A stretch of 54,251 nt of DNA, filler included, from Jimgerdemannia flammicorona (taxonomy: Eukaryota), in the NCBI GenBank assembly GCA_003990765.1. It is 3 parts of 3 records of this genome, joined end to end, with 100 filler letters (N's around TTAATTAATTAA, not from the genome) between each part and the next. Parts side by side here need not be neighbours in the genome. Positions count along the whole stretch, not along the records: positions 36,237 to 54,251 come from RBNJ01002328.1; 2 more parts are not named here. One strand, 5' to 3'. Below are positions 17,270 to 54,251 of the stretch, one piece after another. A program made the translations under genes and the position numbers. The notes under the pieces were generated by a model that was given only the letters and a program-made list of their open reading frames with translations, had not been told where the DNA came from and did not search any database. The stretch's first letter is position 1. Every line of letters begins with the position of its first letter.

Positions 17270-17281
17270 CCACTGCTACCA
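17270..17281 (-). promoter_or_regulatory. E2 primer-binding site TGGTAGCAGTGG (initiator tRNA-Met type)
   Basis: Lies 2 nt inside the 5' LTR. Begins with TGG, the complement of CCA. Same motif in E3 and E4. Confidence 0.75.
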
Positions 17282-17283
17282 AG

Positions 17284-17644
17284 TATAACAGTTCTAGTTT
17301 CTAAATGAGGAAGCGACTAGTTCTGGTGGTTCTAAGTAGCTCAAAGAGATACTTAAGGATTCAAGTATTCTCAAATTATAAGAACAAAGGGGATATTTAT
17401 GCAAGATCTAAAAGAAGGATCTGGAAGGATCTGAGAAATCAAAGGAAAATGCCAAGACAGAAGTTCTCAGCAAAGATGACAAATAAAGTTCTACAAGTTT
17501 CCAGGATATTCAGTAACTAGCTAAATAAGTACTAGTGGATGCTCAGCACCAAGAAAGGATTTCTAAGTGTTCGGAAAGTACTGGAAGGTTGTAGAATATT
17601 GAGGAAAGACAAAGAAAAGAAATAAACTATGCTAAAATGTTATA
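17284..17644 (-). repeat. E2 5' LTR (361 bp; ~32-bp deletion relative to the 3' LTR)
   Basis: Direct repeat of 11685-12077, differing mostly by transitions. Termini decayed to TATA...TATA. Confidence 0.93.
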
Positions 17645-18018: not shown

Positions 18019-18118
18019 NNNNNNNNNNNNNNNNNNNNNNNNNNNNNNNNNNNNNNNNNNNNTTAATTAATTAANNNNNNNNNNNNNNNNNNNNNNNNNN
18101 NNNNNNNNNNNNNNNNNN
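18019..18118. other. Artificial contig spacer N44-TTAATTAATTAA-N44
   Basis: Exactly 100 bp, with a 12-mer that puts stops in all six frames. Identical to 36137-36236. Confidence 0.97.
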
Positions 18119-18434
18119 ATTTCTGACTAAGTATGAGTGACTAATTTGGTAACTATAATGAGGTTTGTGATCATGACCTTTGTCAGGTGGTTTTTGGTAA
18201 AGAATATCTTTGTGATCAGGACCTCAATTACTAGGCAATGATCAGCAGCTGTGGCAACTATTGCTGTAGCGCCAGTTGTCAGAGATAAGCTGGATATTGT
18301 TTTCCATATTGTTTCGCATCGTTCATCTGTTTGTTATTCATATGCCGCGCTCAATCGTATGATGACGTCATTGCCAGGTCACATGATCGTTTGTCTCATT
18401 GCATCCCATCTGTTCACTTATTTGTTCTATTACA
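18119..18434 (-). repeat. E3 3' LTR (partial)
   Basis: Direct repeat of 26440-26755 ending TATTACA; adjacent minus-strand PPT TAAGGAGGGAAGGA. Confidence 0.92.
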
Positions 18435-18445
18435 TCCTTCCCTCC

Positions 18446-19354
18446 TTAGAAATCAATGTCCTTGTTAATTGAGAAATTGAGAACCAGGGGAGAGAAAGGT
18501 GGGGAATCCTCCTCAGGGTTGTTACCATCTTCTTCAGGGGCAGGGGGAGTGGTTACTGGTGGTTTGCTGTCCAGGATGGAGAAGTCAATGAGGTCTGCAA
18601 ATGGTTCTTACATTGGGATAGGTACTGGTATAGAGGTTCTCCATCTGATGTGGTTGGGGCCATCTAAGTAGGGCTCTTGATCTTCATGTCTGGGAATATC
18701 CATTCGAATAGGTGGTCCTTCAAAGAGGTCAGAGAGGCCTTGGAGCCATTGGTCAGGATTATCATTCAGGAGGGGGCTTCAGTAGGGTTCGCAGTCAGTA
18801 GACTTGGGGGTGATCCAGAAGTTGGCTTCTTGGGCTACCTTGATCTCTAGTTCATTAACCTTGAAGAAGGAGAGGTTCTGGAAATCCTTCAGTTGGACAT
18901 AGTTGAGGTTGGGGATTGCAAAGAGTGCATAGCACATGATTTGATGGACCTTCTTGGCAAGTCTTTGCTCATGCCTATCTAGGTGAGTCCAGTCAGAGAC
19001 CTGATCCATGGGTAGGCCACTTGTATGTTGGAGAAGCTGGTGACTGATTTCATATTCATGCCAGATTTCTAGGTAGCTGGTAGTAAGGTAGACCCTTTCA
19101 ATAATTTCACAGCGGTCAAGGACATAATTTCCTAGGTCTGGGCTAGAGAGGTTAAGAACCTCTGAGCAGCGGTTCCTTCCTTGGATAGCAACCTGGATGT
19201 GTCTAAAGATGTGGTCAACCTGGCTTGGGAGGGGCTGGCTATGGCGGGCAGTTTGGTGGCAGGTGGCAGGTATTCCTGTCTTGTCTTTTCTTTGTGAGAA
19301 GAGGGGGATGAGTGTTGCAAGGTATTCTTGCCTTGGGGAATTATACTTATTCAC
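18446..19354 (-). pseudogene. E3 accessory ORF of unknown function, between chromodomain and PPT
   Basis: ORF 18779-19354 reads on in frame past a TGA (W in the homolog) and one more stop to 18446. Clearly homologous to 53109-53933 (YEI..LL, AKK.HQI, IPNL.YV..DF..LS, DNPDQ.LQGL, DLI.FS, P.VLNF). Confidence 0.85.
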
Positions 19355-19920: not shown

Positions 19921-20135
19921 TTAGAGCTGTAGTTCCTTTCTTTGCTGGGGGGTGAGTGTTTCCATGTAGTCCTGGAGGGCTTGGCATGTATTCTTCAGGG
20001 CTTCTTCTTTTTCCCAGGTGGCATCATGGGTGGGGTAACCCTTCCACTTGATCAGGAAAAAGCGTTTGACTGTTTTGGGATATTTGCGGACCTTGTGGTC
20101 AAGTACTTCCTCAATTTCGAATTCCTCATGATCAT
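19921..20135 (-). pseudogene. E3 chromodomain
   Basis: EEFEIEEVLDHK...FFLIKWKGYPTHDATWEKEEALKN. Confidence 0.92.
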
Positions 20136-20209
20136 TGATCCTAATTGGGGGTGGTGATGGAACTGTATGCTCAAGGAATGGGTTCTCATGGTAGTCCACC
20201 AATTGGCTG

Positions 20210-22740
20210 ATATGGAATACTGGGTGTACTCAGATATTGTGGGGAAGTTGCAACTTGTAGTTCACTTTGCTGATTTTTTCTATGATCTTGTATGGTCCAA
20301 TACTTCTAGCACAGAGTTTCTTAGTTGGTTGTTGTGCCAGGGTGTCTGGATGGAGGTGGTCTGTTCTAAGCATGACCTTGTCACCAATATTGTAGGAGGC
20401 TTCTCTTTGCTTCAAGTTTGCATACTTGGTCTGATAGTCTTGTGCTTCTATGAGAGCATCTCTTGTCATTTGGATAAGGTCAGAAATGGTCTCGGCCAGA
20501 TCTTGGGCTGCTGGGACTGCTGATTTCGCAGTAGTACTTGGGGTCCTTGGGTGTTGACCATGGTTCAGGAAGAATGGAGTCTTCTTTGTGGAGGTTTGCT
20601 GACTGTTGTTGTAGGCAAACTCAGCATGAGCTAGGTACTTGTCCCAATCATTTTGCTTGTAACAGCAGAAGATGCTAAGCATCTGTTTGAGAGTCCTGTT
20701 TGTTCGCTCGGTTTGACCATTAGTCTGAGGGTGGTAGGCAGTAGAGAACTTTAGATTAGTTCCATGGAGGGAGAAAAATGCCTTCCAGAAGTTGCTTGTG
20801 AACTTGGTGTCTCAGTCAGATACAATAGTGCTAGGCATGCCATGTAGCCTGAATACTTGATTGAGGAAAATCTTGGCAATCTCTGGTGCTGTAGTGGTAG
20901 TTTTGGTGGGTACAAAATAGGCTTGTTTACTTAGGCAGTCCACAAATACCATGATGGCATCCCATCCTGCCTTGGTCTTGGAGAGTTGGACAATGATGTC
21001 CATTGCAATCTGGTCCCAATTGTGACTTGGGATAGGCAAGGGTTGCAGGAGTCCTGCTGGTAGCTTGTTACCACTTTTGAACCTTTGACATATCTCGCAT
21101 GAGGCCACAAAGTCTTTGATATCCTTGGTCATCTTTGGTCAGTAGAACTCTCTTGAGAGGAGGTTGTAGGTCTTTTCAAAACCAAAGTGTCCTGCTGTAG
21201 GAGTTCCTGCATGATCTTGAGTTGCAGAGTATTATTGTTGGGTACAACCACTCTGTTATGGTCTCTGTAGATAAGTCCATCATGGTAGATGAATCTCTTG
21301 GCCATTTGCCTTATGGATTCTGGAACCTCAGCCTCTGGGTCTTGGCAGGATTGAAGGAAATTCATCAGAGGGCTGTCTTGCTGGTAGCCATCCTTGATCA
21401 TTTGGGTAAGGTCTCCAATTACTTTGACCATAAAGACAAGTTTGTCTTCTATGTATCTGGAGAAACCATCAGCCACACGGTTGGTTTTGCCTGAGATATA
21501 CTTGATTTCCATATCAAAGTTGGCAATGATTTCCATCCAGTGGGCTTGTCTGTGGGTCAGCATAGGCTGTGTATGAATATACCACAGTGCATGGTGATCA
21601 GTATAGGCTACAAATGACTGTCCTAGGAGGAAATAGCACCATTCCTGGAGTGCAGTGACAATAGCCAGGAGTTCCTTCTCATGGGTGGTATACTGGGTCT
21701 CAGCTGGCTTGAGCTTTTGGGAGAGGTAGGCCACTGGGCAGTCTTCTTGACTGAGTACTGCTCCAATAGCAATATCAGATGCATCTGTAGTCAGAGTGAA
21801 TGGTCTGGTAGGGTCAGGTGCAATTAGCACTGGGGCCTTGGTAAGGAGTCTCTTGAGGTAGTCTATAGCCAGGGTGCATTTGGGGGTCCATTTAGCTTTG
21901 ATGTTCACTCCTTTGTGGGCCAGACTGGTTAATGGAGCTGCAATAGCAGAGTATCCTTGGATAAACCTTCAGTAATAACCGGCAATACCCAGAAAGTGCT
22001 GAAGTAGCTTGAGGGTAGTAGGGATAGGGATATCCTTAAGGGCTGATACCTTTCAGGGGTCCACATTGATACCTTCAGCAGAGATGATGTGTCCTAGATA
22101 TTCAATCTGGTGTTGGTAGAACTTGCATTTGCTCATCTTGGCATAGAGCTGGTGTTCTCACAGGAGGGTCAGTACTTGTCTGAGATGGGTGTAGTATAGC
22201 TCTACTGTCTTGCTGTAGATTAGTATATCATCAATATACACAAGGACACAGATGTTGAGGAGTGGTCCAAAGATGTCATTCATCAGATACTGGAATGTTG
22301 CTGGTACATTGGTCAATCCAAAAGGTATGACTCGGAACTGGTAGTGTCCAAACTGTGTTTGGAAAGCTGCCTTCTCAATGTCCTTCTCATCAATGAGAAT
22401 CTGGTGGTAGCCATTTCACAAATCCAGTAGAGAAAAGGTCTTGGCCTTGAAGATTTGGTATAGCAACTCATCAATGCTGGACAAGGCATACCAGTTCTTG
22501 ATAGTGATCTTGTTGAGGGCTCTGTAGTCAATACACATTCGTGGAGAGCCATCCTTCTTGACAAATAGAATGGGGGCTCCAAATAGAGAGTGGCTGGATT
22601 CAATGTATCCTTGGGCCAGTAGTTTGGCCAATTCATCCTTAAGGGTCTTGAGCTCAGATTGAGCCAGTTGATAGATAATCTTGTATGGGGGTTCAGATCC
22701 TGGAATAAGATCAATTCCATGTTAGATTTGGCACTTGGGT
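20210..22740 (-). pseudogene. E3 RT, RNase H and integrase
   Basis: [71 protein letters not shown]. Confidence 0.95.
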
Positions 22741-25975: not shown

Positions 25976-26755
25976 TGTAATAACTCTCACTTCTACCCCT
26001 CTCTTATCCTTAGGATAATTAGGGAAGTGGACTATTACTTAGGGACTTAGTATACAATGTATACCAAGAAGCCTTCAGTTTGAGGAAGTGCTCACTTAAA
26101 GTAGTTGTAGCAGCAGTGCCTTATCTTTCAAAGGTCTTTCTCTTGTGCCCTATTTCGAGGGTCTTGTTCTTTGGTGTGCACAGACTGAATTTGTCTTAGA
26201 ATTCAGGTTCAACTGGTTTACTTAAGTCTTTGGGGATTTATATACTGGTCTCAGTTCTGGTAGAAGTTAGCTAGGCTTCTGGAGTTTAGTCAGAAACACT
26301 AGAGTCACTTAGATGTCATTACTAAGACTCATGGGAATGTGGGTGTGTGGGGGGGACTTGATTCTTATATGAAGGACTGAACTAAAACTGCTTTATTTCA
26401 GATGGAAAATTGGGGGGTATTTATACAAGTTGGTCCATGATTTTTGACTAAGTATGAGTAACTAATTTGGTACCTATAATGAGGTTTGTGATCACAACCT
26501 TTGTTAGGTGGTTTTTGGTAAAGAATATCTTTGTGATCAGGACCTCAATTACTAGGCAATGATCAGTAGCTATGGCAACTGTTGCTGCAGCACCGGTTGT
26601 CAGGGATAAGCTGGATATCATTTTCCACCTCATTTCGCATTATTCATCCATTCATTATTCATATGCTGCACTCAATCATATGATGACGTCATCACTGGGT
26701 CATGTGATCGTTCATCTCATTGCATCCCATCTGTTCGCTCATTTGTTCTATTACA
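25976..26755 (-). repeat. E3 5' LTR (780 bp)
   Basis: TGTAA...TTACA ends. Minus-strand TATAAATACCCC at ~26414-26425. Palindrome TGATGACGTCATCA at 26681-26694. Confidence 0.92.
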
Positions 26756-29700
26756 TCAGGAGTGACTTGAGTTTTGTACAGAAGGTTTCGAATTCTTCTT
26801 TACCATGTATATCAAATTTGAGGTTGTGGAGCTTTACTCGAGATTCAGCAATCATGGTTTCGCTGTAGTATTGGGCAATCATGAGTTGTTTGAGTCCAGG
26901 GGCTGCAGGATGGGCTCCATAACCTGGAGTATTGTTTGCTGCATTCTGTGCAACTACTGTAGGTCAGGTATCCCCTGTGAGTGGTTTTTCAGGAAGGGTT
27001 CACCACCATTCTTTGGCAGGTCCTTGGAAGAATGTAACAACTTGGCGGACATAGGCTCTAGTGATAGCAAAGAGTTGTTCCAGAGTGTGGTCTTGATTGT
27101 TGTCAAAACATGGTCAGCAACTTGCTCATTGGTCCATTGATTGGCTTTGAAGTTGGTGTCAACTACACTAATAAAGCTTTGGACTTCTTGTGTAGTACCA
27201 TTGAAGGTACGTAGGCTCAGACTTTTGGTAGGTCGGGTCTGTTCAGCTAAGGCAGTAATGGTTGCTACCATTATAGCTACCTGGGCTGTGAGGTCTAGAA
27301 TCTGTTGGTTCACTATGTTGTTCACTGGAGGCAGTTGGACTGCTGGTAGTGGTGTTACTGGTACTACTTGAAGAGTGTGATGGGGTTCTTTGGGTCTGTG
27401 TAAGTTGCTGGAGTAGTAGTTGTGGGTCTGGAGTGAGGGCTTGATAGATAACTGTTTGTTGCTATGTAGGTGTATTCTGTCCTGATGGAGGTACTTCTCC
27501 TTCGGTAGTATATCTGGGATCGAATTCACTGAGATACTCCTCCTCTTCTTCAGTTTGGTCCCTGTGTAATTGGGTTTGCTCAGCATCAAAGTAGACAGAA
27601 TCAGTTGTATATCTGATTTCAGACAGAATTAATTCAAAGTCAAGTTCAGGTTTGGTATTGGTTTCAGATTCAGGTAGGGCTGTAGCAGAACCTGCTTCAG
27701 GTTTGGGATCAGGTAGTTGATGAAGGGTTTCTCTAGCTTCTTCTTTAAGAATATGTGGGCCTTGCTGTTCTGGAATCAGTAATATAATGCAGTCTTGGTC
27801 CTGGTATAGTGAAAGTCAGTAGAGTTGAGCCACTTGGCTATAGAGGCTTAGGCTTCATAAGGGACTAGGGCTAGAAAGACTGCTGCTGGTTGTCCTAGGT
27901 CGCTCGGATTTGTAGAGCTAACAAAACTCTTATTGAGAATAGTAAAGAAGACTTCTATAGGACCTTCTTCATCTTGACTTGCTGGGTGTAGTGCAAGGAG
28001 CTTGGTGAATAGGGTTTCACCTATTTGCTGGTTTAACCAGAGTACTTCTTTCTTTGAATGAAGTTTGTCCCACTTGTTGTAGGTGTGGAGGTCAAATTGT
28101 CCTTATATGTCAGGTTCAATTCTCTCCAGATTGTGAGATGGTTCAGGATAAATTCCAGTTCAGAGGTTGGGCTTTATACCAACTTGTAGGAATTCTCAGA
28201 AGGGTTTGTAATGGGGTGAGAAAGCATCTTGAAGTAGAATTGGATTGTAAACTGCTACTACTAAGTTGTAAGAGGGTTGCTTTTTCGGATAATCATTATG
28301 TAGTTCTGGAAGGGTTTTCTTGAGGTTCTGGATATTCTGGAAGACTGTTTTCTTATGGTCAGGATCAATTTCTTATGGAGTATGTCCTCTATGCTTATTG
28401 ATTTCAAGATTGGGTTCACATCTTAACCAAAGTCCTTTTTTGGACTAGTTCTGGATGTTCAGGATTTTCTGTATTTCAGGAAGTTCAAGAAACTAAGACC
28501 AGCTTAGTTGAATCGGCATTTCACTGCAGACAATACCCAATTAGGAAATTTCGTAATAGAGTTTGGAGTGGGACCTAATGGGGAGCAGAATTACTTAAAT
28601 GTGGTTTGTGGATTATTAAATAGGTTTATTCACTATTCATGATATTGCTATACTAGGGGTAGTTATGTAAAGGGATATTGTAGGGAAGTGCTCAGGAGTT
28701 GTGTTTGGATTGTTCAAGTATTCAAGTCTGAGATTCTGAGGTCTGGGAGAGGGGGTATTTATACTATTGAGAGACTATCTGGACTATGCTAGATATGGAT
28801 ATAGAACAAAGTGTCTTGCTGAGTCAGAATGCAGTCATGTAGTACAAGACTAATCTAACTATACTATGACTGTTAGGCTATTTATAGGTTTAGGCACTAT
28901 CTGGGTAGTCCTTGATAATATCACCATCGATTGCATCATCTCTGATGAAGTAATTGTCTAGGAAGAGTGGTTTACGGATTACTTCTCCTTGTTCACTGAG
29001 GTAATAATACATTGGAACTTCATCTCCATTCTACAAGATGGCATCATCAGTCTCATATGCTGGGTAAGGTGTTAGTGGGCGAAGGAGGGGTGCATCATCT
29101 TCGCTTTCATTGGTTTTGCTATCTGCATACCTTCTATAGGTTATAGCACTATGAGTTGTGGGGTTGTAGTAAGCTGGTGGCTGTGGTTCATATCACACAT
29201 ACTCAGGTGGTGGAGTGGTTGATTCAATCTCAAGAGTTGTCTGGAGGTACAGATTGTGTTCTCCAGTCTCTTCATTGTAGTTGAAGTAATCGGGGGTAAA
29301 CATAGGTTGGTATTCATACCAGTGGTCATTGTCCCAATAAGTCTTGTATGCTGTTATGAATTGTTATAAGTTCATCAGCAAGATTGGTAGTGTGATCAGG
29401 GTTGGCAGAGATCCTTGGCTTGGGGTCATGTCAGTGTCAGAGAGGTCATTGTCTTCAACTTCATCTTCATTGAACCAGATTATATCATAGACATCCTTAA
29501 TGATATATCTAACTTTGGGCATTTGCAGGATGTGATCGTTGGGGTGGGGGAAGGTTCTGTCTGTGGTTTCGATGTACTTGAGGTACTTGTGGTTGAGTTC
29601 TTGTATCATGTCATCGATTTGGCTATAGGACAGGGTAGCAACCATTTCAGCTGTAGTAACTTGGAGGTGGGGAATAACAGTACTATACTCATAGAGAGTT

Positions 29701-30287
29701 CTCGATGTTTGTGGGAAATGAGCTTCTGGTGTTGAGACATCTGGGTAATATCTGTATTATGGTGGTGTTCGATCATGTCTTCCAGGAGCTGGCCAATCTG
29801 GTAGTAGCTTGAGATTTGTCCAATCTAGTGGGCCTCATTAAGCATATTCAGGGCATTCCATCAGGCTTCCATGAAGTAAAGGAGTGCTAGGCTATGGATA
29901 TTCATGAGGTGCAGAGGGGGTGTGGCTTGGTTGACAATAGCATTCCAAATGTCAGCATGGATATAGTTGTAGATCTTAGTGGTCATATTTGAGTATTGGA
30001 AGTTGTGGTTGTTGTTAGTTTTGGTTCTCTGTTTTGATGCATCTCAGTGGTTAGTATATATGCATTTGGTCCTAATTGGTAAGATTCTATTTGTATGAAT
30101 CTTATGTTCTGTGACTTCATATTGACTCAGCTTTGTGTACTGTGACTTTGGTTTGACTCAGCTTTGTGATCGAGCAGGTGATTTCCAGATTTGTTCAGAG
30201 GTCATGTGTGATTTCAGTGGTTTGTTCAGAGGGTGACATGTAATTTCAGTGGCCAAAAGAATAAAAATACACCTTTAACCAGTAACA
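26756..30287 (-). mobile_element. E4: 5' portion of a Gypsy element (long 5' LTR, PBS, leader, gag), interrupted by E3
   Basis: The LTR end at 28267 and ~680 bp match family A. Decayed PBS TAGTAGTAGCAG at 28252-28263. gag LRTFNGTTQEVQSFISVVDTNFKANQW is homologous to E3 gag. The outer LTR boundary is uncertain (candidate TG starts at 30238 or 30287). Confidence 0.8.
29364..29986 (-). pseudogene. Divergent homolog of the accessory ORF inside the putative U3 of E4
   Basis: MTTKIYNYIHADIWNAI...SYYQIGQLLED...HQKLISHK/SRTLYEYSTVIPHLQVTTAEMVATLSYSQIDDM..., with 2 stops and 1 frameshift near 29705. Motif spacing matches YEIGNLL...IPNL...LS...I. Confidence 0.65.
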
Positions 30288-32354: not shown

Positions 32355-32409
32355 GAGGAGCTAAACATGGACTTGTAGAGGATGGGATCACTTTCTAACA
32401 TTATTCCTT

Positions 32410-35400
32410 ATGAACAGTACAACTAACATTTTCTCTTTGAATATGAATGGGCTGAGGGGGTCTGGATGACATAAGAACATTTTTACTTAGCTCAAGAGAT
32501 TGGAGGCTGATCTCTTTTTACAACAGGATGTGTGGTGTGAGGATGAGGAGGATCAGGTAAAGTGGACTATGGAATGGGGTGGGGCTTCTGCTTGGTTTGG
32601 AAAAGTGGCAATTCTGGTAAGGAAGGGTAGAGGTGACTTGGAGGGAATCAGGAGCTGGGGTGACCATCTGGTCTGGGGTGATTGGCAGTAGCCAGGGTGG
32701 AAGTCAGTGAGGGTTGGCTCTTGCTACTACCCTGTGGTTAGGGGTGAGAGGATTGCTTAGATTAAGGAGCTGCTGGAGGAGGGTGTTCCCTTGGCAGAAG
32801 GGGTTGATATGATTGGGGGGGACTTTAATATGGTTCGGGATCAGCATCGGGACCGCACTGATGGTGGGAGGAGTGCAGGAGGGAGAAGTGGAGGCCTGGA
32901 TGCATGGGAGGAGGTGGAGAGGTTGAGCTCCTTAGGGGATATGGGTAGAATGTGATAGGGTGACTCCAGGGTCTATACGCATTGGGGGAATGGCTTGGGT
33001 ACAAGAATTGACTGGATTCTGATGGCAGAATGCTAGGGGTCTGATGTCTGAAAGGTATTGGAGGTAGAATAGTGCCCATGGTCTGATTACTGGGGACTGT
33101 TGGGACAGGGGCAGTTTGGGGGGAGTGGAGATGGACCTGAACATTGGTGCCTCAACTCCTCCCTACTAGCTGAGAAGGGGTTGTGGGATTCTTGGGTAGA
33201 GGACATTCAGGCGAAAGTTTCACACTGGCAGTGTGAGGGTTTGTCAGTGGATATTCAGTGGATGAGATTGAAAGAGGCTGCAAGGGTCTATTGGGGAGAG
33301 GTTGGGAGTGAAGCTGGAAGAAGAAGGAGGAAGCACATGAGGTGTACTTCTAGCAGGCTGAGGAGATTGCAGATGGATTGGGCTGGCTTGCTTACTTCTG
33401 ATGGGGTGGAGGATTGGAGGTTGGCATGGATTAGATTGGAGGTTTTGGAACTGCAACAGGTGCTGAGAGAAGAGGAGGAGGTGCATATGCATGGTATGGT
33501 GGCTAGGCTACGGTGGCAGGGGCTTGAGAAGAGTGAGTGGCCTACTAGTATTTATCCCATTTGCTCCATGTAAGGAAGGTGTGACATTAGTGGGATGGAG
33601 TCCTCAATGCTGATGGGGACATGGTGCATGGCATGCAATAAATCCTAGGGGTTTTGAAAGAGAGATGTTGGGGTTTATGGAGTGAGGATGAAGAGGGTGC
33701 TGATGAGGTGGCTATTGAAGAGGCATTAGAAGAATAGAGGCTGCTGCAAGTGACTGGACTGGATGACTTGACCTTGCCGGTGCAAGATGAGGAAGTCCAT
33801 AGTATCCTTGTGGCAACTAAGACTGGAACAGCACCAGGAGAGATGGACTTCCATGGGACTTCTGGAAGAAGATGGTCAAGGTCTCTGGCATTCTGGGGGA
33901 GATGACTGCTCTCTGTGATCATGTTCTTCAGAGTGGTAAATAGGTTGGGGAGCAGGACCTTAGGCTAGTGGCTTTATTGTGCAAGGACAGGGGAGAAGAG
34001 AAGACTGAAAGAACTGGCAGCCAATCATGCTTTTGGACATAGACAGGAAGATGGTAACTAAGGTGGTTGTCGCAAGGCTGCAGAAGGTTGCCCAACAGGT
34101 ACTGGGGGAGGAGCGGCAGGGCTTTGTTGGAGGAAGGCTTATTAGAGATAGGACTGCTTGGGTGCATGGGGTCATTGAAGGGGCCCAGACTTGTGGCCTG
34201 GATGGGAGGTTGGTCTTTTTGGATCAGGAGAAGGCCTATGACTGGGTCCAGCGGGTTTGGCTGGGCAAGGTGTTGGGTTATATTGGTATTCCCCCTGGAT
34301 TTCGGGCTTCTATGGTGAATCTACTTGAGGGCAGTCAGGCAGCACTGTTGTGTAATGGTCACCATGGTCAGGCATTTACCTTGAGGAGAGGGGTTCCTCA
34401 GGGGGACCCGTTGTCCCCTATTCTTTATGCTCTCTCATTGGAACTGTTAATGGATAGGATTCACCAGAAGGTGGTCGGGCTCTCTATCTATGGCATAGTA
34501 TGGAAGGTGGGGGCCTTTGCAGATGATATGGTGGTTGGCCTTGGGTCAGTGGCAGATATCGAGGCACTTCAGGAGACAGTGGAATGGTATGAGGTTCACT
34601 CTGGGGCAAAGCTCAACTGGCATAAGTGTGAGACCATGGTGCTAGGGAATGGACTGGTGAGTGGGGACGTTATTGGAATAATTGTCCCTACTGGTGAGGT
34701 GGTATGTTATCTGGGCATCTTCCTCTCTGTATATGGTTCTGTCTTGCCATGAGTGTAGTGGGAGAGCAGGGTGGCTATTTGGGGGGAGGTCCTTCAAGGT
34801 TGGGGAGGCCACCATATCTCTCTAGCAGGGCGGGTTACAATTCTGAATACATACTGGTTTCCCAAGCTGTGGTATATGGTATATCATCTAGACTTCCCAG
34901 CTTGGGTGGTGAAGAGGCTGATAAAGGTGGCTAGAGATTGGATTTGGGCAGAGAGGAGGTCCCAGATCAGTTGGGATGCTCTTGTGATACCGGTGGATAG
35001 GGGAGGTCTTGGCCTTGTGGATTTCCCTAAGAGGTTGTACTGCTTGCAAGCCTGGTGGCTGAAGAGAGTGGCTGAACTGCAGGGAGGAGGTTGGGTACTT
35101 CTGATGCAGAAGGTGTGGGAGATGAGAACCTCCCCCCAAGGGTCCTCAGGAGATCTACTCTCTTTGGTAGGGCTCAATGGAATTTGGCAGCTGTGGTTTA
35201 AGGGCTTTTGGTGGGGAGTGGTCAATGGAGTACACTGAATTGGTCTCTGCTGGCAAAGCAATGAGGGGGAGGTAGTGTGGGGTTCTCATATGTGGCGATG
35301 GGATAGACTGCTTCTGGGAGGTGCTCCACTTGTTACTTTTGATATTGGGGATGGAGTAGAGTATCAGCAGGGTCTTGGCCAAGATCTTTGGCCAAGTGGT

Positions 35401-36066
35401 TGGCAGGTAGTCGGGATTGGTGAGGAGTGGGACTGGGCTGGTATCTGGTCTTGGAGCACTGAGGTACGGCGGTGGCTTCCCCCCAAGTTCTGGGTGGTGT
35501 AATAGCGAATGCTGTGGAGAAATGTCATACTGAATTTCCACACCAAGCATCTGGTGGATGGTGGCTGTTTTGATTGTGAGAAGTGTTACAATATAGGTCA
35601 AGTTGGGGGTTGGGTGCAGATGCTGGAACATTGGCTGGGGGAGTGTAAGGTTTTGGGGGACTTTTGGATTGAAATAGAGAATAGCCTGAGTGTGGAGCAC
35701 AGGCCAGCGGGTGAAGGGGATCACTGGGAGGACTTGAGATCTCAGCTGGTGGGGGGGGTGGGTGATAGTTGGTTTACTGTTGGGTGGGTATTAGCAGTTT
35801 GAGTGGATCTGGCAGAACATTGGCTATTTGTGTTTGAGGAGGGGTGGCAGATAAGTCTGCAGGAGAAGGTTGTAAGATGGGTGGAGCTGTTGGGGGATCT
35901 GTTGACTGGATGGTGGATAGGTTGGGGTCCCTCAGGGGGGTGGTGGCATGGTTTGATAGCAAGGATATGCGAACAGAGTGGTGGGAGGGTGGGAATTGTA
36001 TTTGATAGAGTGGTGTTTCATTGTGAAGAGGTAGTAAGGAGGGGCCTCCCTAGGGGGATTGGATAG
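32410..36066 (+). pseudogene. LINE ORF2 (APE endonuclease, RT, C-terminal CxxC...HxxxxC)
   Basis: FSLNMNGLRG, GGDFNMV, RIDWIL, WSDY, WQPIMLLDIDRKMVTKV, FLDQEKAYDWV, GVPQGDPLSPILY, FADD, SGAKLNWHKC, CFDC...LEHWLGEC. Confidence 0.92.
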
Positions 36067-36136: not shown

Positions 36137-36236
36137 NNNNNNNNNNNNNNNNNNNNNNNNNNNNNNNNNNNNNNNNNNNNTTAATTAATTAANNNNNNNN
36201 NNNNNNNNNNNNNNNNNNNNNNNNNNNNNNNNNNNN
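36137..36236. other. Artificial contig spacer N44-TTAATTAATTAA-N44
   Basis: Same 100-bp structure as 18019-18118. Confidence 0.97.
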
Positions 36237-38890: not shown

Positions 38891-39382
38891 GTTAATGTTT
38901 TGACACTGGACAGGCTGTTCTGAGCTCCAAATAGGTCTGAATTTACAAAAAAGACAAAATCACCCAAGTAGTCTTCCTGGAGTTCAAAATACCTCAATTA
39001 TAAGATATTTCTAACTGACTCAAGGTGCAAGTCAAGCCTAAGGATTTGGAAGTTCAGATAAGAAGAAAGTACACCTCCTTCAAGTCAGTTACTTCAAGAA
39101 GAATTTATCTTAATAAGTTTATTATTAGTTAGTAAAACTCTATAAAAATTTTATTCTAAAATCAGAAGATCAGACTGTCTTTGAAATCTTTATACTACCA
39201 GATTCCAAGAACCTCTTTGAACTAAATAAAGATCTTAAAAATCTTGATGTAGAAAAATATATATTTTTTGATAAGATGGGTTCAATATATTCTCAAACCA
39301 CTAACTAAAGCTAGAACAATATTATCTTGCTAAAAGAAACTATTATAGTATATCTGATATATATCTTATCTTAACTTAATAT

Positions 39383-40472
39383 TATCATGTAGTGGGTACT
39401 AAGTTCTCCAAGTATGTCAGATTCTCTTCAAGATATATCTCTTAGACCAACTATAAGTTTCTTATAAGCAAGTTCTATTAGAGTGTCTTCCCAAGGTCTT
39501 ATAGTCCTCAAACTTCTTATCTTTAAACTATTTTGTTATCTCTTGAATTTACTTGTTTGGAATTAAGTAAAGGACTGAAACTTCTATACTTTTGAGTAGT
39601 TGGGTGCTCAAATGCTTGAGTGTTTTCAATGCTTAACTACTGACTTTATTTCAAAAGAAATGAGAGAGGTATTTATATAAAATATAATTCAATAGTTGCT
39701 AAGTTATAAAACTAAATATAAATTCTAATAACTAAATAAATGAGGTACTTGAATACAGAAAACTTCAGATTGTAAGTATAAATTTAAGTATCTATATAAT
39801 TAGTTATATAAGATCAGAATGCTGGAATAATTTCTAATAGTTATACAAGATCAGAATACCAGAAGAATTTCAATAGTTATATAAAGAACTCAGAGCAGAA
39901 TATTCAGAATCCTGGAGACTTTATCTTCATCACTATTATTAAGGCTAGAGGTTGGAGACAGGATATCTTTGAAAGAAATGAGGTCAGCAAATATTTTGTC
40001 TATTTTATATATATTATACATTTCAATTAGTAGTGAGATGACATTATTATTGATAATGTCATCATATTCAGTAGTGGTAGTAGCAGAGAAAGTAAAGAGA
40101 TCAGGGGCTCTCCAATCTATGAGATTCTCCTTTATAAAGTAGAGGACAAAGGTGGGATTTTGAGAGAATCTAACCTAGATACTGGGACATTAAAATACTA
40201 AGATTAATCCCTATAAAAATTGATCAGGATTGTTCTAGAGGATGGGATTCTAGAACTCTTCTACCTCATTACTTCTGAGAGTAATAATATATTAGGCTTC
40301 TGTGACTACTATGACCTCTAGTGTATCTATACAGCAGGCTGATAATTTTTTGAAGTCTGAGACTCTGGTATACTCTAAGTTGGAGATTAATCAAGATATA
40401 TACCTAAAGATCTGATGGATCTTTTTTGGCTACTCTCAATTCACATATATCTATAGAGATGGCATCTTATAT

Positions 40473-40503
<31 letters not shown>

Positions 40504-42219
40504 GTTTAATGGACTCAATATCCTGCGGATTTTTATTAGAAGGGAATCTAGACTATATAGGCCAAAACCCTCCCCCACCACCCATCAAGCACTGCCCTCC
40601 CATTAATCTAGGCTAGCTATTGTCTAGCAGCTTGACTATACTAGGCACAGTAGGGCCTATGGTGGCCTATACCTCATTCTGTGCACCATGCTCTCCCTAC
40701 TACCAGGGGAAACCCAGCCATATGCCAATGACTGAAAGCACATACCTGAGAACCCAATGTATGTACAAGGTCATGTCCAAGCTGAATAGAATAGCCCCTG
40801 CCACTCCAAAGAGAATGACAGGCAAAGAAAAACTCTCATCAAAGTACAATATAATAGGTAGGGCCTGGTTCTCCCAGTCAAGATGAGTAAAGGACTTACA
40901 TGTGAGATGGGAGGAGACCCCCAATACTCCACTACTCAAGCCTGCAGGCCTTGATCATATTGCTATGTCAGCTCCTAGTTCTAGTTAAGTATAGCCAAGA
41001 CACCTGAAATAGGTAGCCTTGGCCCCCTGACCCCCCCTGACGACCGGGGCCCAATCTGCCAAATCACCAAAAGAAGCTGAGAGTGATACCTACCACCTAA
41101 CTGTACCATACTAATCAAAAGGCCCCACCAGAGCAGCACCTGCCCCAGTCCTGATAACTGCTCCCAGCCTGGCACCCTACTGATTTACTGTTAATGCCCT
41201 TCCTCCTATCTGTGGCAGCCATCTCCCCTCCCATCCTGACAATACCCAAAAAGCAGTCACCTATACCAGAACCATGCTTGCTGGGAAGCTCGCCAAAGCC
41301 AGAGGGCCCCACTACAGGCACTAAGGACCTGTAGGTAATCTATAGTGAGCACTTGATGCCCAAGGTTGGCTGACTCCCTACATAGTCCGAGATACACTGA
41401 AACAGCACTTTGTTGGCAATAACAAAAGGAAGAAGGCACCTCACCAAAACGGATGCACTCCAGACACAGCTAAAGGCACCAGAAACTGCGAAAAAGAGGA
41501 GAAGACACCGATCTGACACTGATAAAGGGGCAACCCATCACCATTGCCTCCCTCTCACTGCCCTGCAACAGATACAGCAAACCAACCTGAGGTAGAGGGG
41601 GTAATAATTGTGAAAAGTGGACTCAGAAGGTTGCCTACCAAACCAACATGACCAGTAAGATAGCAGAGAAAGGGTGGTATCTTATATCTCTTAGAGACTA
41701 GTCTGAGAGAATTTCTGATAGAGAAGATTTCCTATTTCATATTTCTGCTATATCTAGAGGTATTTGATAGTGATGATAATCTTTGTTTCTATTTTATAGT
41801 TGTAGAGAATAAAGTGGTAAGAGTTATCAGTATCCAGATTAAGGCTAGGAGTTCTTCTGATATAGATCCTCATAGCTCTCCTGATATCTTGGAATATTCT
41901 TTTTTGAACTAAGAAGCCTTGGTGATTCCTGGACTTTGAGATTTGGTAGGTGGCAGGCATTTTGTTTATAGTGAGTCTTTGAACTATTTAAGAGTTTTGT
42001 AAGTCTTATTTGAGTTGCTGCTGCTATGGTTTCTTAGTCCTTCTTTTATATTTCTTAAGATATCTATCTTATAGTCATAATGACTTATGGTTAGTCATCA
42101 TTGCTCATCTTATAGCCTGAGTGAGTTATGCTGTATGATCTTCTTATGCTCTAATCTGATAGCTTAAAAGAAAAGACTATCTTCTGTGATGATATCACCA
42201 TTCTGAGATCACCATTATA
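39383..42219 (-). repeat. E6 3' LTR containing a decayed copy of the accessory ORF (41960 to ~39889)
   Basis: 39383-40110 repeats 47922-48626. From 42219 downward it matches the start of the LTR at 52867. ORF 41754-41960 (MPATYQISKSRNHQG...) matches 53109 onward. Confidence 0.88.
40478..41674 (-). mobile_element. 5'-truncated non-LTR (LINE-like) insertion with poly(A) tail and ~18-bp TSD; second LINE family
   Basis: Poly(T) at ~40476-40503 on the plus strand. TGGCATCTTATATCTCTT at 40460-40477 is repeated as TGGTATCTTATATCTCTT at 41675-41692. It interrupts the LTR ORF. Confidence 0.85.
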
Positions 42220-47880: not shown

Positions 47881-47921
47881 TGAAGGATCCTAATGATATC
47901 ATCAGCCAATAGGTACTAAGT

Positions 47922-48626
47922 TGTCATGTAGTGAGCACTAAGTTCTCCAAGTATATCAGATTCTCTTCAAGGTATATCTCTTAGATCAACTACAAGTTTC
48001 TTATAAGCAAGTTCTATTAGAGTGCCTTTCTAAGATCTTATAGTCCTCAAACTTCTTATCTTTAAACTATTCTGTTGTTTCATAGATTTACTTGCTTGAA
48101 ATTGAGTAGAGGACTGACTTCTGTGCTCTTGAGTAGTTGGGTGCTCAAATGCTTGAGTGTTTTCAATACTTGACTACTGACTTTATTTCAAAAGAAATGA
48201 GAGGAGTATTTATATAAAATATAATTCAATGGTTGCTAAGTTATAAAACTAAATATAAATTTCAATAATCAAATAAATGAGGTACTTGAATACAGAAAAC
48301 TTTAGGTTATAAGTACAAATTTGAATTTCTATACAATTGGTTATATAAGATCAGAATACTGGAATAATTTCTAACAGTTATACAAGATCAGAATGTCAGA
48401 AGAATTTCAACAGTTATATAAAGAACTTAGAGCAGAATGTTCAGAATCCTGGGGACTTCATCTTCATCACTATTATTAAGGCTAGAGATTAGAGACAGGA
48501 TGTCTTCAAAGGAAATGAGATTAGCAAATGTTTTGTCTGTTTTGTATATACCATATATTTCAATTAGTAGTAGGATGTTTGGTAGTAGTGACAGTGGAGA
48601 AAGTAAGGAGATTAGGGGACTTCAAT
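47922..48626 (-). repeat. E6 5' LTR, truncated
   Basis: Direct repeat of 39383-40110 with a small internal deletion. Ends abruptly against the E7 RNase H. Confidence 0.88.
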
Positions 48627-51600
48627 ACTTCAAGTGGCAAATTCTACCCTTCTATATAAAGTTACTACTGATGCCTCTGACCTAGCTCTTGGAGCAGTGC
48701 TTATGTAAAAAGGACACCCTGTGGTCTATCATTCTCATAAGTTCAATAAAGCTAAAATTAACTATATAACTCATAAGAAGAAAATGTTAGCCATTATAAA
48801 CACTCTAATCAAATAGTGATTATATCTCAAAAGAGCATACTTCACCATATTAATAGACCACAAATCATTAATCAACATCAAGACCTGGGCACTTTCCCAA
48901 AAGCAAGTCAGATGGATGAAAGTTCTCACTAATTTTGACTATGAAATCCAGTACTGCCCTAGCAAGAAAAACATTAATACTGATATAATTTCCAGACTAC
49001 TAATCAAAGAAGTTATACAAACCCTCACCTTAGTTACCAACTCTATTATGGAATAAATTATTGCAGCATATACTGATGATAAAGAAGCTCAAGCACTCCA
49101 AGAAATCCTAAGCAGTGATGATATTGACAAGTACTCCTGATATCATCAATACTAACTGAAAGATAATGCTATCTACTATAAGTGCAGATTGTATATCCCT
49201 AACAATCAAGACCTCTGAAGGACTATTCTATTCAAATATCAGAATGCCCCTATAGCCAGATATCTAGAATTTGACAAATACTATAAAGTTATTTTTCAAA
49301 ACTTCTATTGGCCCTATATAGCAGATCAACTAAAGATCTATATCACTTTCTGTAATACCTGCTAATATAACAAGTTCTCAATACTAGCAAAATCTGGCCT
49401 ACTCTAGCCTATCCTAGTATTATCTACTAATTAGAAACAAATCTCTATAGACTTTATTATGCAACTACTCTGAACCAAGAATGGAAAAGATACAATTATT
49501 GTCTTCATAGACTATCTTATCAAATAAGTCCACTTTGTATCTACTGCTACAACTGCAACAGCACCTGAAATTGCCATACTCTTATTTGATAATATCTTTT
49601 ACTATCATGGTCTTCTTAAGATCATTATTAGTAATCAAGATCTAAAATTTACCAGCTATTTTTGAAAAGCTCTATATGTATATCTTAGAATAAAACTTAC
49701 ACTATCTATAGCCTTTTACTCTAAAACTGATAGCTAAACTGAAAGGATGAACCAAACTCTAGAACAAATACTAAGAAACTATATTTACTATAAATAAGAT
49801 AATTAGTATGAACACCTTATTGTAGTCAAGTTTGCCTATAATAACAGTAAACAAGCATCTCTTGGAATGACTCTGTTCTTCACTAATATAGAACAAAACC
49901 TGAACACCTCTCTGATACTTATCAGAACTACTGATTAACTCTCTAATATTGAAGCTATTGAAGAATTCCTACTTCAAATGTGCAACTTAAGTCAGATTAC
50001 AATGAGAATTTATCTCAAGCTCAAGAATAACAATCTTAGTATATCAATCAGCACTGCTGAGAAGAAACTTTTGATATTAGAGAAAAAGTTCTACTAGATA
50101 TCCAAGAATACTGAGTTAATAATCTCAAGCACAGACTCTCTATAAAGCTAAATAGCAAATTCATTAGACTATTAGAAGTCATTATACAAGTCTCTCCAAC
50201 CTCCTACAAATTGATACTACTGGATACTATCAAGATTCACTCTGTCTTCAATGTCTAATATCTCAAGTGATATAATGAAAATGATGACAAACTATTTCTA
50301 AATTATACTATAAAACCACCAATACCTGTTATCATTAATGACCAAAAAGAATATAAAGTTGAACAAATTCTCAACAAATACAGCCACAAGAACTATCCAG
50401 AATACCTTGTCAAATAAAAAGGTTATCTGATCCATGATACAATATAGAAACTCAAAACTAACCTCCAGAATGTTACTGACTTAGTTCAAGAATATGATTC
50501 TTTAAACAACTAAATCTGAATAATCCAATATTTATCAGTCTTATACTATATATTACCCTCCTGAACATTGTTAAAAGTATTCTTATAATTATTATGAATA
50601 AAATCAAGAACTCTACAAGTCAAGATAAAAGAAATACCAACTTTCTAGAAAAATAACAAAACTGAAAACCAGTCTATTCTCCCCATACTACTAGTGAAAA
50701 ATGAGATATAGACATTTAAGAAGATTTCTTAGAGGAAATTCTCTAGTAGTAAATGACATCAGAATTACTTCTGATATATAGCATTGAATATATGACTCTT
50801 TAATATATGTATAAATCTAATATATTAGATAACTATACTATGAGTATACTACTTTCTGAGAAAAATGAATGTTACTAGACTTTTGACCATCTAAATGGTG
50901 TAACAACACTAGACCAAATTAGATGACCTTGATGAGAATATAAAAAACTAAGAAGGAGAGAGTTGTAAGTACACAATCTCTAAGTCACTAAAATTATATA
51001 ACTCTCTTAGAACAAATTTGGAAACCATATACAAGATCATGAAATGAGTCACTGAAGAGATCATCTGATTATACAAAGTATACCAGTAAGTACAAATATT
51101 TATTACCAAAACACAAGAATACTAGAAGAAGTACTATGACTATAAGGCTGATCTTAAATCTCTACTCATTGGATAACTAGTCTTAGTATACCATACTATC
51201 ATAAAAGGAAACTAGAGTATCAAACTCAAACTAAAATGAAAAGGACCCTATCTTATCCATCAAAAGTTCATGAACCATATATATTAACTCAAGACTCTGA
51301 ATAGAGTTATACTCAAGACTAAGATATACTGCAACTATATAAGACCTTATTACTCAGTAGAAGCAAAATACATTTGAATAACTTTATTTACTCCATCTGT
51401 ATTATCTTCATTGGAGAATGACAGATGCTTCATATAGAACTCAAGAAAGCCAACAATATTAAAACCAATCTTAAGCCCATCTATATGATAGATGTTATTA
51501 TTAGAAATTGCCTCAAATTATAGAAAATATTATTTCTAAGAAGTTTGAACCCCCAGCCATAATAATGAGAGCTCTGCTTTAGACAAGAATGGCCAGTTCT

Positions 51601-52500
51601 TGCAAATGTGCCAATAGTCCAAAAAAAAAGAGAACTAAGACCTGTTATTCCTGTGTAACTATCTCTGCCAAGGATAGCTCTAGTTTTGCAAGGGGTAGAT
51701 ATGACAATATTTTGAAACTAATGATATCAGAAGTCAGAAGACAGCTCAGACTTTATCAGAGATAATATTATCAATGGTGATCTCATCAAAGAATATCCAG
51801 ACAGTATCTAAACCTACAAATAGCTTAGTAGTCATTAGTATAGTTAGATTAGTCTTATACTATATATGTAACTGTATTCTGACTCAGCAATCAGTCAATC
51901 TCTTGATATATCAGTCCACACTTATACTATGTGACTATATTCTGACTCATCAAAGTACTAAGTACTATATCCATATTTAGCATAGTCCAGATAGCCTCCT
52001 ATTAGTATAAATATCTACTCTCTCAGACCTCAGAAACTCAGACTCAAATAGACAAGAACAGTCTAGAACTCCTGAATACTTTTCTACACAATATCCCTTT
52101 ACACACTACTCCTAGTATAGCAATATCATGAATAGTAAATAAATCTATTTAATAACCCACAAACTACTCTTAAGTAAATCTGTACTCTGTTAGATTCCAC
52201 TCCTAACTAGATCCTGAATTTCCTAATTAGGCATTGTCTGCAGTGATACATCAATTCAACTAAGCTGGTCTTAGTTTCTTGAACTTTCTGAAATATAAAA
52301 AATCCTGAACATCTAGAATAAGTCTAAAAAAGAACTTTAGTTGAGACATCAATCTAATCTTGAAATCAATAAGTATAAAGAATATACTCTATATGAAATT
52401 AATCTTGATCTTTAAGAAATAGTCTTCCAGAACATCTGGAACTTCCAGAAAACTCTTCTAGAACTATATAATAGTACTTTAATAAAGTAACTCTTTTATA
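48627..52500 (+). mobile_element. E7: 3' half of a decayed chromovirus-type Gypsy element (RH-INT-chromodomain-PPT-LTR family A)
   Basis: VTTDASDLALGAVL, IDHKSL, ISIDFIMQL, ERMNQTLEQILRNY. Chromodomain EYKVEQILNK..PEYLVK*KGY at ~50340-50510. PPT AAGAAGGAGAGAG at 50950-50962. Confidence 0.9.
50964..52500 (+). repeat. E7 3' LTR, family A
   Basis: Starts TGTAAG right after the PPT and is collinear with 2687-4173. Confidence 0.9.
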
Positions 52501-52820: not shown

Positions 52821-53108
52821 AGTTAGCAGAAAAATATATCAAATTATCATCCAAATTAGTTACCATTGTAACGGTGACCCCAGAATGATGACATCAGCAC
52901 AGGAGACAGCCTTTCCTTGTAAGCCACCAGATCAAAGCACAAGAAGATCATACGGCATACAAGATGAGCAATGATGACCAACTGTGAGTCATTGTGACCA
53001 CAGCACAAGCATCCTGAAGAATATAAAAGAAGGATCAAGGAACCGCAGTAGCAGCAACTAACAAGAACCACCAATCCCAAAATAGCTCAAAGACTTACCA
53101 CAAACGAA

Positions 53109-53933
53109 ATGCCTGCCGCCCGCCAAACCTCAAGGTCAAGGAACCACCAAGGCACCTCAGTTGAAGAAAGGATGTTCTAAGACATCAGAAGAGCCATGGA
53201 GACCCGCTCAAGAAGGACTCCTAGTGTCCACCTGGGTACTGCAGACCTCTATCACTTTATCCTCTACTGCCATGAAATAGAAACAAGGATCACCATCACC
53301 ACCGAATGCCTCCAAATGTGGCAGGAGTACGAAATAGGAAACCTCCTCTGCCGGGAGTTTCCACAGGCCAGCACCCAAGAGCTACAAGATGCCACTCCCA
53401 TAGATATACATGAAACGAGGACAGCTAAGAAGATCCATCAGATCTTCAGGCATGCACCATGGTCAATTCCCAACTTGGAGTATGTTAGAGTCTCAGATTT
53501 CAGAGACCTGTCATCTCACCACATCAATGCACTAGAAGCCAGGGTGGCTACAGAAGCCCAGTCCACTATCACCCTCAACAGTGAAGAAGTAGAAGACTTC
53601 TGGCACCCCATCCTTCAGGACAACCCAGACCAATTCCTGCAAGGATTGATCTCAGTATTCCAAGGCCCAAGCATCCAAGTTAGATCCCCCCAAGACCCCA
53701 CATTTGTCCTCTATTTTGTGGAAGAGAACCTCATAGATTGGAGAGCTCCAAATCTTGTCCCCGATTTCCCTGCCGAACGTGATGACGTCATCGGCGATGA
53801 CGTCATCCCGCGCGACATTGACATACCCGAAGCATGCGAGACACGTGACCTGCATGATGAATTCATGGATCTCATCTCCTTCAGTGATGATGATGATGAT
53901 GAAGCCCCCATGGTCCTGAACTTTCTGCTCTAA
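53109..53933 (+). CDS. LTR(U3)-encoded accessory protein of unknown function, 274 codons; one premature TAA at codon 24, with a 245-aa open frame from 53196
   Basis: MPAARQTSRSRNHQGTSVEERMF*DIRRAMETR...; the homolog at 41960 has Q at the stop. Conserved at protein level with 18446-19354 and 29364-29986. TATAAAA at 53022-53028. Confidence 0.8.
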
Positions 53934-53943
53934 GTTCTTTGTT

Positions 53944-54075
53944 ACACTGAATAATGCCAGCACCAGTATTTTCATGTAACACCAGATAATACCAGCACCG
54001 GTATTCTGAGGTGACGCGAAATTGTTCCAGCACCGGCATTTTGATGTGACACTGGATAATGCCAGCATCCTGAAC
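53944..54075 (+). repeat. Imperfect ~35-bp tandem repeat, about 4 units, in U3
   Basis: Unit approximately ACACTGGATAATGCCAGCACCGGTATTTTGATGTG. The equivalent position in E6 LTRs (~39800-39885, 48340-48425) holds a ~37-bp repeat. Confidence 0.8.
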
Positions 54076-54251
54076 CTGTACAACCAACAATACCAGCCCT
54101 GGAACTTAGTAGTTTTAGTTATTAGAATTTATATTTAGCTTTATATCTTAGCAACCATTGAATTATATTTTGTATAAATACCCCTCTTATTTCCTCTGAA
54201 ATAAAGTCAGTTCTTCTCAGTGCAATACACACACTTCCTTGCAAGCAATCT

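Follow-up and report, generated by a model that had tools for sequence, protein, structure and literature searches.

The window analysed here is a 54,251-nt stretch of the Jimgerdemannia flammicorona genome (assembly GCA_003990765.1), built of three 18,018-bp pieces with artificial N44-TTAATTAATTAA-N44 linkers between them (18019-18118 and 36137-36236). Adjacency across these two positions is therefore not real, the cut 3′ long terminal repeat (LTR) of the element E3 being one example. Nested, partly decayed Ty3/Gypsy elements make up this repeat-rich DNA, and three of them, referred to as E8, E6 and E3, carry copies of an extra gene family which we named ORF-X (Table 1). With its 3′ position, its own ATG, a soluble acidic protein product, and a sequence that is under selection and diverges approximately as pol does, ORF-X is in all likelihood a genuine third gene of a dUTPase-carrying group of Ty3/Gypsy elements.

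Copies of ORF-X in the window

The three copies contain common blocks in their translations ((MF*)DIRRAM / IFRHIQVAI, YEIGNLL / YEISHQLL, AKKIHQI / AKKVHQI, IPNLEYVRVSDFRDLS / IPNLNYVQLKDFQNLS, and also DNPDQ(F/W)LQGL). When E8 was searched against the window with tblastn, it matched E3 with 38% identity across 216 amino acids (E 1.2e-39), and E6 in two pieces, with identities of 52% (E 5e-45) and 56% (E 8e-23). An unfiltered (--max) search of all six frames with a hidden Markov model (HMM) built from 11 family members matched only E8 (4e-124), E3 (2e-105), the two pieces of E6 (3e-55 and 2e-21), and an additional copy of the ORF-X C-terminus within the 5′ LTR of E6 (E 7e-5).

In a preliminary description of the window, homologs were proposed not only in E8, E6 and E3 but also in the element E4, and the protein was said to be shared by three different Gypsy families. 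The first three copies are upheld by tblastn, HMM and the shared blocks, while E4 had to be rejected as a member. There, tblastn gave no match better than E 2 in either direction, the 11-member profile found nothing in six frames even at E 100, and hhalign comparison of its three open pieces with ORF-X resulted in probabilities of 0.9%, 0.3% and 0.3% (E 0.06-0.19), no better than those of three unrelated gag ORFs used as controls (0.8%, 0.1% and 0.1%; E 0.07-0.63). No significant alignment thus connects E4 with E8. Likewise, clearly different families do share ORF-X, but they represent only two deep lineages, the E3-type and the E6/E8-type, in which ORF-X is present in all three copies found in the window.

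Each of the copies is damaged to a different degree. E8 holds a single premature stop (TAA at 53178-53180, codon 24), at a site occupied by Q in the relatives, and its protein shares 89% identity with P0001, an intact metagenomic protein. In E3, the start codon is changed from ATG to ATA (19273-19271), two internal stops are present (18781-18779 and 18610-18608), and the final TAA is located at 18448-18446. The E6 copy accumulated 11 stops in total and is split by a 1246-bp insertion. This insertion is probably a non-LTR retroposon or a processed sequence, the former reading being based on its poly(A) end.

Table 1. Coordinates of ORF-X copies and associated features in the window
Feature	Position	Strand	Details
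ORF-X copy E8	53109..53933	+	274 codons plus stop; translation, HMM 4e-124
E8 3′ LTR	53819..54251	+	start approximate, mapped from E6 LTR start; extends past the end of the window
Conserved stretch before E8 ORF-X start	52867..53108	+	alignment of E8, E6, L001 and E3
ORF-X copy E6, N-terminal part	41673..41960	-	96 codons, 4 stops, ATG intact
ORF-X copy E6, C-terminal part	39893..40426	-	178 codons, 7 stops; ~47 last codons in 3′ LTR
Insertion splitting E6 ORF-X	40427..41672	-	1246 bp, GC 0.47, terminal run of ~29 A
E6 3′ LTR	39382..40034	-	89.7% direct repeat with 47921-48571
E6 5′ LTR	47921..48571	-	U3 carries copy of ORF-X C-terminus, 48543-48430
ORF-X copy E3	18446..19273	-	translation, tblastn, HMM
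E3 polypurine tract AAGGAGGGAAGGA	18435..18447	-	begins with the final two bases of the ORF-X stop codon
E3 3′ LTR	18119..18434	-	begins TGTAATAG; 88% repeat with 26440-26757; cut by linker at 18118
E3 5′ LTR, pairable part	26440..26755	-	inserted in gag of another element
E3 integrase-terminal chromodomain	19924..20229	-	Pfam Chromo, E 6.4e-13; pol frame ends here
E4 ORF	29364..29986	-	orphan frame-shifted ORF, not a demonstrable family member

Position of ORF-X within the elements

The element E3 offers the most complete view of the surroundings of ORF-X. Its LTR pair encloses, on the minus strand, gag (25133-24018), dUTPase and protease, reverse transcriptase, RNase H, integrase and chromodomain, followed by ORF-X. 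The start of ORF-X is located ~650 bp beyond the chromodomain, and its TAA leads into the polypurine tract and the adjoining LTR that starts with TGTAATAG. Chromodomain is thus present at least in the E3-type of ORF-X elements. The earlier statement that E6, by contrast, has no chromodomain is not supported, as the corresponding part of E6 is too decayed to judge.

In E6 and E8, ORF-X does not stop at the polypurine tract as in E3, but extends for ~40 codons into U3. For E8, ~38 final codons lie within the 3′ LTR, whose homology to the E6 LTR is seen in two segments (53891-53940 with 39932-39883, and 54114-54211 with 39736-39639, 92% identity). Coding sequence for the C-terminus is found in both LTRs of E6, which is consistent with its location in U3. 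On the upstream side, homology between E8 and E6 begins at 52869 (~52867), and contigs of all four public runs compared diverge at 52865-52867. ORF-X occupies the same strand as gag and pol, minus in E3 and E6, and plus in E8, where the LTR is oriented as in E6. Within the LTR-bounded element and after the end of pol, ORF-X is therefore a 3′-terminal gene in the position of env and on the gag-pol strand.

A 1.5-kb repeat (R, 50963-52498) preceding the E8 copy was considered as a part of E8 and rejected, since it represents the 3′ LTR (TGTAAG...CTTACA) of an inserted element, E7, whose pol is found at 48622-50495.

A 300-bp module is situated between the E3 chromodomain and ORF-X (19780-19478, minus strand). 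It shares 77-80% identity with an inner segment of the R LTR, which belongs to a different family (E4/E7), with counterparts at 3044-3344 and 51362-51659 (both plus strand). The module contains GATTCGAACCCC, which resembles a tRNA T-arm, although ARAGORN and Rfam give no match at that place, nor do they match anything elsewhere in the window. The module may be a regulatory one, shared between the families.

Selection and divergence in step with pol

For estimating the selection acting on ORF-X, E8 was compared with L001, a 1345-bp metagenome locus which holds an intact 323-codon relative and shows 72% DNA identity to E8. The ratio of nonsynonymous to synonymous differences (pN/pS) was 0.43 in the ORF-X frame, whereas reading the same nucleotide alignment in either shifted frame gave 1.04 and 1.17. 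Within the protein, pN/pS was 0.35 for the core (residues 1-215) and 0.74 for the tail. According to the NG86 method, the rough values of the corresponding substitution rates between E8 and L001 were 0.35 (dN) and 1.48 (dS), with dN/dS of 0.24 across 272 aligned codons, and a dN/dS of 0.33 was obtained between E8 and E3. Intact relatives of 200-342 amino acids, with identities of 29-91%, point to purifying selection too. It is clear that ORF-X is under purifying selection, and its preliminary description as a selected retrotransposon gene is in this respect well founded, since dN/dS is not near 1.

The two ORF-X-bearing lineages are distant. LTRs of E3 show no similarity to those of E6/E8, while E6 and E8 share ~73% DNA identity. 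In columns anchored on E3, pol identity amounts to 46% for E2-E3, 40% for E3-E7, 39% for E3-E6, 35% for E2-E6 and 34% for E6-E7. Identity of ORF-X between the E3 type and the E8 type (37-38%) equals that of pol between E3 and E6, so that ORF-X diverged in step with pol, consistent with its presence in the common ancestor and subsequent co-descent. The proposal that ORF-X is exchangeable among retrotransposons finds no support in these values, and the sequences give no sign of recent exchange between the lineages. The occurrence of ORF-X is nevertheless patchy, as E2 and E7 do not contain it and have only ~360 and ~470 bp, respectively, from pol to LTR. This absence would be explained most simply by loss.

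E2 itself (11810-17642, minus strand) is a compact Gypsy element of 5.8 kb. Its 267-bp LTRs are 91% identical, it contains dUTPase, integrase and an end that resembles a chromodomain, and its pol is the nearest to that of E3.

The ORF-X protein and its relatives

The ORF-X protein is soluble, strongly acidic and mostly helical, with a length of 270-340 amino acids. Its N-terminus is short and basic, and the core of ~150 residues, helical for the most part, is followed by a small beta-hairpin and by a disordered acidic tail, in which the last 70 residues hold 12-21 D+E versus 2-4 K+R. Two hydrophobic motifs of the tail, DLIxF and P-x-VLNF, are conserved. AlphaFold models of E8 and of the L001 core (mean pLDDT 56 and 63, pTM 0.47 and 0.60) present the same order of elements, in which a long helix and several short helices are followed by a low-confidence linker, a further helix, the beta-hairpin and the disordered tail. 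The invariant motif W-x-P-[IL]-L-x-D-N-P-D-Q is located in the low-confidence linker.

Regarding possible identities of this protein, two candidates were rejected. An env remnant does not agree with the net acidic character of the proteins and with hydropathy, as in six members the maximal 19-residue Kyte-Doolittle mean reaches only 0.47-1.05 and indicates no membrane segment, with no dedicated signal-peptide predictor having been run. The preliminary description of the protein as not env-like, without signal peptide or transmembrane segment, therefore stands as far as the membrane segment is concerned. A duplicate of gag was rejected as well, based on the hhalign probabilities against the three gag ORFs of the window (0.8%, 0.1% and 0.1%) and on Pfam scans, where no gag family appeared.

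Comparisons with characterized domains gave no confident match either, so ORF-X may rightly be called unrecognised in this sense. No Pfam family was found at E<=1 for the E8 ORF, L001 and the metagenomic protein P0008, and the lone Pfam row, ATG5_HBR, appearing in two of the 11 members of the family alignment A2 when searched up to E 10, was rejected because its best E of 0.088 is at chance level. A sequence profile search of PDB yielded no matches at E<=10, and Foldseek against PDB none, with the best E of 2.0. VIA-align of the two models against 48,161 chains resulted in best Z scores of 3.6 (root-mean-square deviation (rmsd) 4.0, 78 aligned) and 4.2 (rmsd 2.3, 75 aligned), both well below the chance level for helical models, and no DNA-binding fold was recognised. 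Viral structures in BFVD gave no match (best E 0.15, TM 0.30). In the ESM Atlas, top scores of 0.85-0.86 were accompanied by low recognition (1739 and 1979), and the nearest clusters, hypothetical proteins of Basidiomycota, can be taken as leads only.

Relatives of ORF-X are few among predicted proteins. A word-indexed search of 5.8 billion proteins found six, and an exhaustive profile search of 1.84 billion representative proteins found seven matches, two of which, an ankyrin-repeat protein and a tandem-repeat protein, were discarded as spurious. Overall, ~10 relatives were collected, all from short metagenome contigs and annotated no further than ‘hypothetical protein’. At the DNA level, many related contigs are present in soil runs, and in the best soil metagenome run 1946 contigs match the ORF-X stretch at a likeness of at least 85%. 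L001 was the one locus obtained by scanning metagenome contigs with a single protein, and a scan of viral contigs for ORF-X loci gave none. The RNase H ORF of E3 has best protein matches that are only 43% identical. Full-text literature searches, with Repbase and Dfam outside their scope, retrieved no description of the ORF-X protein.

Start codon and a possible internal promoter

Between the stop of pol and ORF-X lie ~550-650 bp with stops in all frames. The ATG of ORF-X is found in the context AAATGCCTGCC common to E8, E6 and L001, while E3 reads AATACCTGCC with ATA, so the ATG is kept in three of the four aligned copies. Moreover, the metagenomic proteins P0002, P0007 and P0008 and the ORF of L001 start at the same methionine, followed by P (MP...). 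Upstream of it, the TATA-like element TATAAAAG is located 87 nt (E8, 53022-53029), 90 nt (E6, 42050-42043) and 65 nt (L001) before the ATG, with no intervening ATG, and in E8 it is followed by an ATG-free A/C-rich leader. This placement hints at an internal promoter for a 3′-coterminal subgenomic mRNA.

Comparison with known additional ORFs

LTR retrotransposons are usually treated as gag-pol machines, and conserved extra genes are their least understood part. To our knowledge, almost all of the described cases come from plants and insects.

ORF-X fits well into the category of aORF-3S, defined as sense additional ORFs (aORFs) between pol and the 3′ LTR and reviewed for plants (Vicient and Casacuberta 2020, PMC7264820), because it resides within an LTR-bounded element after pol, occupies the gag-pol strand and is kept in the copies of a family. 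As in the account of aORF-3S given there, it is also conserved like the other proteins of the element and has no database similarity or known role. It differs in that the plant and insect sense examples described in that account are ENV-like with membrane features, which ORF-X does not have. Furthermore, the elements that carry ORF-X are probably fungal and encode a dUTPase, and at least one of their types is a chromovirus. A fungal host is considered probable from the combination of dUTPase and chromovirus type (PMC2864245), from the RIP-like mutation pattern described below and from the weak leads to Basidiomycota in the ESM Atlas. The fungal Gypsy element Boty also has an aORF between pol and the 3′ LTR, but according to the same account it is antisense (PMC7264820). 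In fungal chromoviruses, an ‘add. ORF’ of unassigned function is marked in a figure legend on element structures by Novikova et al. (2010, PMC2864245). These are chromodomain Gypsy elements, some with dUTPase, and, as far as the legend and text allow comparison, their extra ORF may be the same thing as ORF-X. A further parallel is found in bdelloid rotifers, where additional ORFs are common to diverse retroelements and one accessory ORF family is spread, in that report, across different LTR-retrotransposon families (Rodriguez et al. 2017, PMC5408684). The host kingdom and the proteins are different there, and the sharing of ORF-X is explained by co-descent, with no sign of capture.

ORF-X thus represents a selected sense accessory gene of a known kind and, as far as the searched libraries reach, a new protein family. 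It is a clean, probably fungal case with a defined position, a conserved start, selection, pol-like conservation and no recognisable family or fold, which makes it a concrete candidate for asking what a third gene other than env does for a retrotransposon. In addition, the alignments A2, which comprises the 11 members, and A4 can be used as a family profile, by which annotators of transposable elements can find and label ORF-X.

Several observations weigh against this interpretation, or against parts of it. Each of the three ORF-X copies in the window carries breaks, and the genomic context is known from this window alone, as the metagenome contigs are too short. With dS of ~1.5, near saturation, the dN/dS values are rough, but the contrast between frames is still clear. 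The acidic tail is the least constrained part of ORF-X, the confidence of the structure models is low to middling, and no fold, DNA-binding motif or activation domain was identified. Concerning expression, E3 does not have the exact TATAAAAG, and since the three sequences with a TATA box and an ATG-free leader are ~72% identical, these features could be shared by descent alone. Among the public runs matching the ORF-X stretch none is recorded as RNA, and the two presumed-RNA runs turned out to be contigs (52866-53660) without transcript ends and with joints without GT..AG ends.

Possible roles of ORF-X

Foamy viruses have a regulator, Tas (Bel1), a gene of ~300 amino acids at the 3′ end, near or overlapping the 3′ LTR, with an acidic C-terminal region and an internal promoter. 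ORF-X resembles it in size, 3′ position, acidic C-terminal region and the upstream TATA-like element. The resemblance is one of layout only, as no similarity in sequence or fold was found (best E of 0.15 in BFVD). Of the mechanisms considered, we tentatively favour a trans-acting regulator, although the role of a transactivator in particular is only a guess. Regardless of its role, ORF-X is probably made separately and not within Pol, being translated from a 3′-coterminal subgenomic mRNA whose TATA-type internal promoter lies 65-90 nt before the ATG, or, alternatively, from a spliced mRNA. As a regulator, ORF-X would use its helical core to bind nucleic acid or a host factor, while its tail, acidic and hydrophobic, would bring the transcription machinery to the LTR or to the internal promoter of the element. 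It is doubtful that these parts add up to a transactivator expressed from its own internal promoter and setting up a Tas-like two-promoter feedback programme as in complex retroviruses, which would have evolved independently and on an unseen fold.

Alternatively, ORF-X could be a cofactor of the replication cycle, serving as a Rev-like helper in RNA export or packaging, as a chaperone, or as a nuclear-import or targeting partner of the particle or the integrase. For the Rev-like variant, an arginine-rich N-terminus and the leucine-rich C-terminal motif VLNF(L)L would be used, and the E8-type N-terminus is indeed rich in arginine (RRAMRTRSRR), P0001 and P0002 having 9-10 K+R among their first 45 residues, while the last conserved motif is hydrophobic and leucine-rich. 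Any 3′ gene would also have to balance the expression of unspliced and subgenomic RNA. On the other hand, E3-type members and P0008 have only a weak basic patch (4-6 K+R), which is therefore not family-wide, VIA-align of the two models found no RNA-binding fold, and the closely related E2 and E7 do not contain ORF-X, which is hence not essential to the basic cycle. Taken together, this makes a cofactor role rather unlikely.

It is also conceivable, with a probability that we regard as low, that ORF-X protects new copies by binding and blocking a component of host defence such as RNA silencing, heterochromatin, cytosine methylation, or a deaminase or RIP-like (repeat-induced point mutation) process. 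The heavy C-to-T and G-to-A hypermutation of the surroundings, quantified below for two LTR copies, indicates a strong defence. Adaptor or decoy proteins typically have an acidic tail of this kind, disordered and with short hydrophobic motifs, and a lineage-restricted family is what would be expected of an arms-race gene. Arms-race genes, however, usually evolve fast, while ORF-X is conserved like pol and its core shows a pN/pS of only 0.35. Moreover, copies carrying ORF-X are as mutated as elements without it, and Pfam and BFVD searches revealed no similarity to known suppressors. If ORF-X nevertheless blunts defence, or if it regulates transcription as in the Tas-like reading, it would bear on the expansion of repeat-rich fungal genomes.

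Very improbable, in our view, is a passenger origin, in which an env remnant, or a host gene that an ancestral element acquired in a single transduction, would persist without serving the element. In some cases, extra ORFs found in LTR elements do derive from host genes by transduction (PMC7264820). Purifying selection across deep lineages, the absence of a stand-alone cellular homologue in the exhaustive search of 1.84 billion representative proteins, the lack of a membrane segment or env-like feature and the tight junction with polypurine tract and U3 all speak against it for ORF-X.

Finally, a 3′ exon or read-through extension of Pol, joined to the integrase by splicing or frameshifting, is highly improbable. 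In its favour are the location of ORF-X directly downstream of integrase/chromodomain on the same strand and, in E3, a further 35 open codons in frame ahead of the start position. Against it, stops fill all frames of the intervening segment, the ATG and its context are conserved, the four metagenomic ORFs begin at the same methionine, and no fused or longer protein was seen among 7434 candidates, the last point being weak evidence.

Mutation pattern and other elements in the window

Differences between repeat copies in the window are mostly C>T and G>A. Between the R copies at 2686-4171 and 50963-52498, 129 C>T and 66 G>A were counted, as opposed to 28 T>C and 23 A>G, and the same excess is visible between the ORF-X copies of E8 (53109-53933) and E6, as well as in the E6 LTR pair. 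The affected contexts follow the order CpG (0.56) > CpA (0.46) > CpC (0.34) >> CpT (0.15). The pattern looks like RIP or deamination-type hypermutation, which would account for the drop of GC to 0.28-0.32 in decayed copies.

Several features of the neighbouring elements illustrate their nested arrangement. The gag of E4 (26957-27628, minus strand) is split at ~26757 by the insertion of E3, whose own gag includes 24648-25133 (minus strand); as the two gag proteins are 42-48% identical, E3 was inserted into a related element. The E4 ORF listed in Table 1 has an acidic C-terminal part that ends with ...LPILLMNL, precedes a truncated R-type LTR (28951-28266) and a gag, and has no detectable relatives within the window. 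In E4 as well as in E6, the 5′ LTR ends with ...ACA and is followed by ACTTAGTA... (28265-28250 and 47920-47905, both minus strand), a start that is primer-binding-site-like and common to these two otherwise dissimilar elements.

A solo R LTR of ~1.48 kb (2686-4166, TGTAAG...CTTACA) is flanked on both sides by a 5-bp duplication, AAAAT. The segments 7049-11678 and 30778-35436, mutually inverted and ~70% identical, stand out by their GC content of 0.47-0.56 and very strong GC skew. A reverse transcriptase (RVT_1) is located at 34009-34752 within the latter, and this GC-rich pair probably represents a family of non-LTR retrotransposons.

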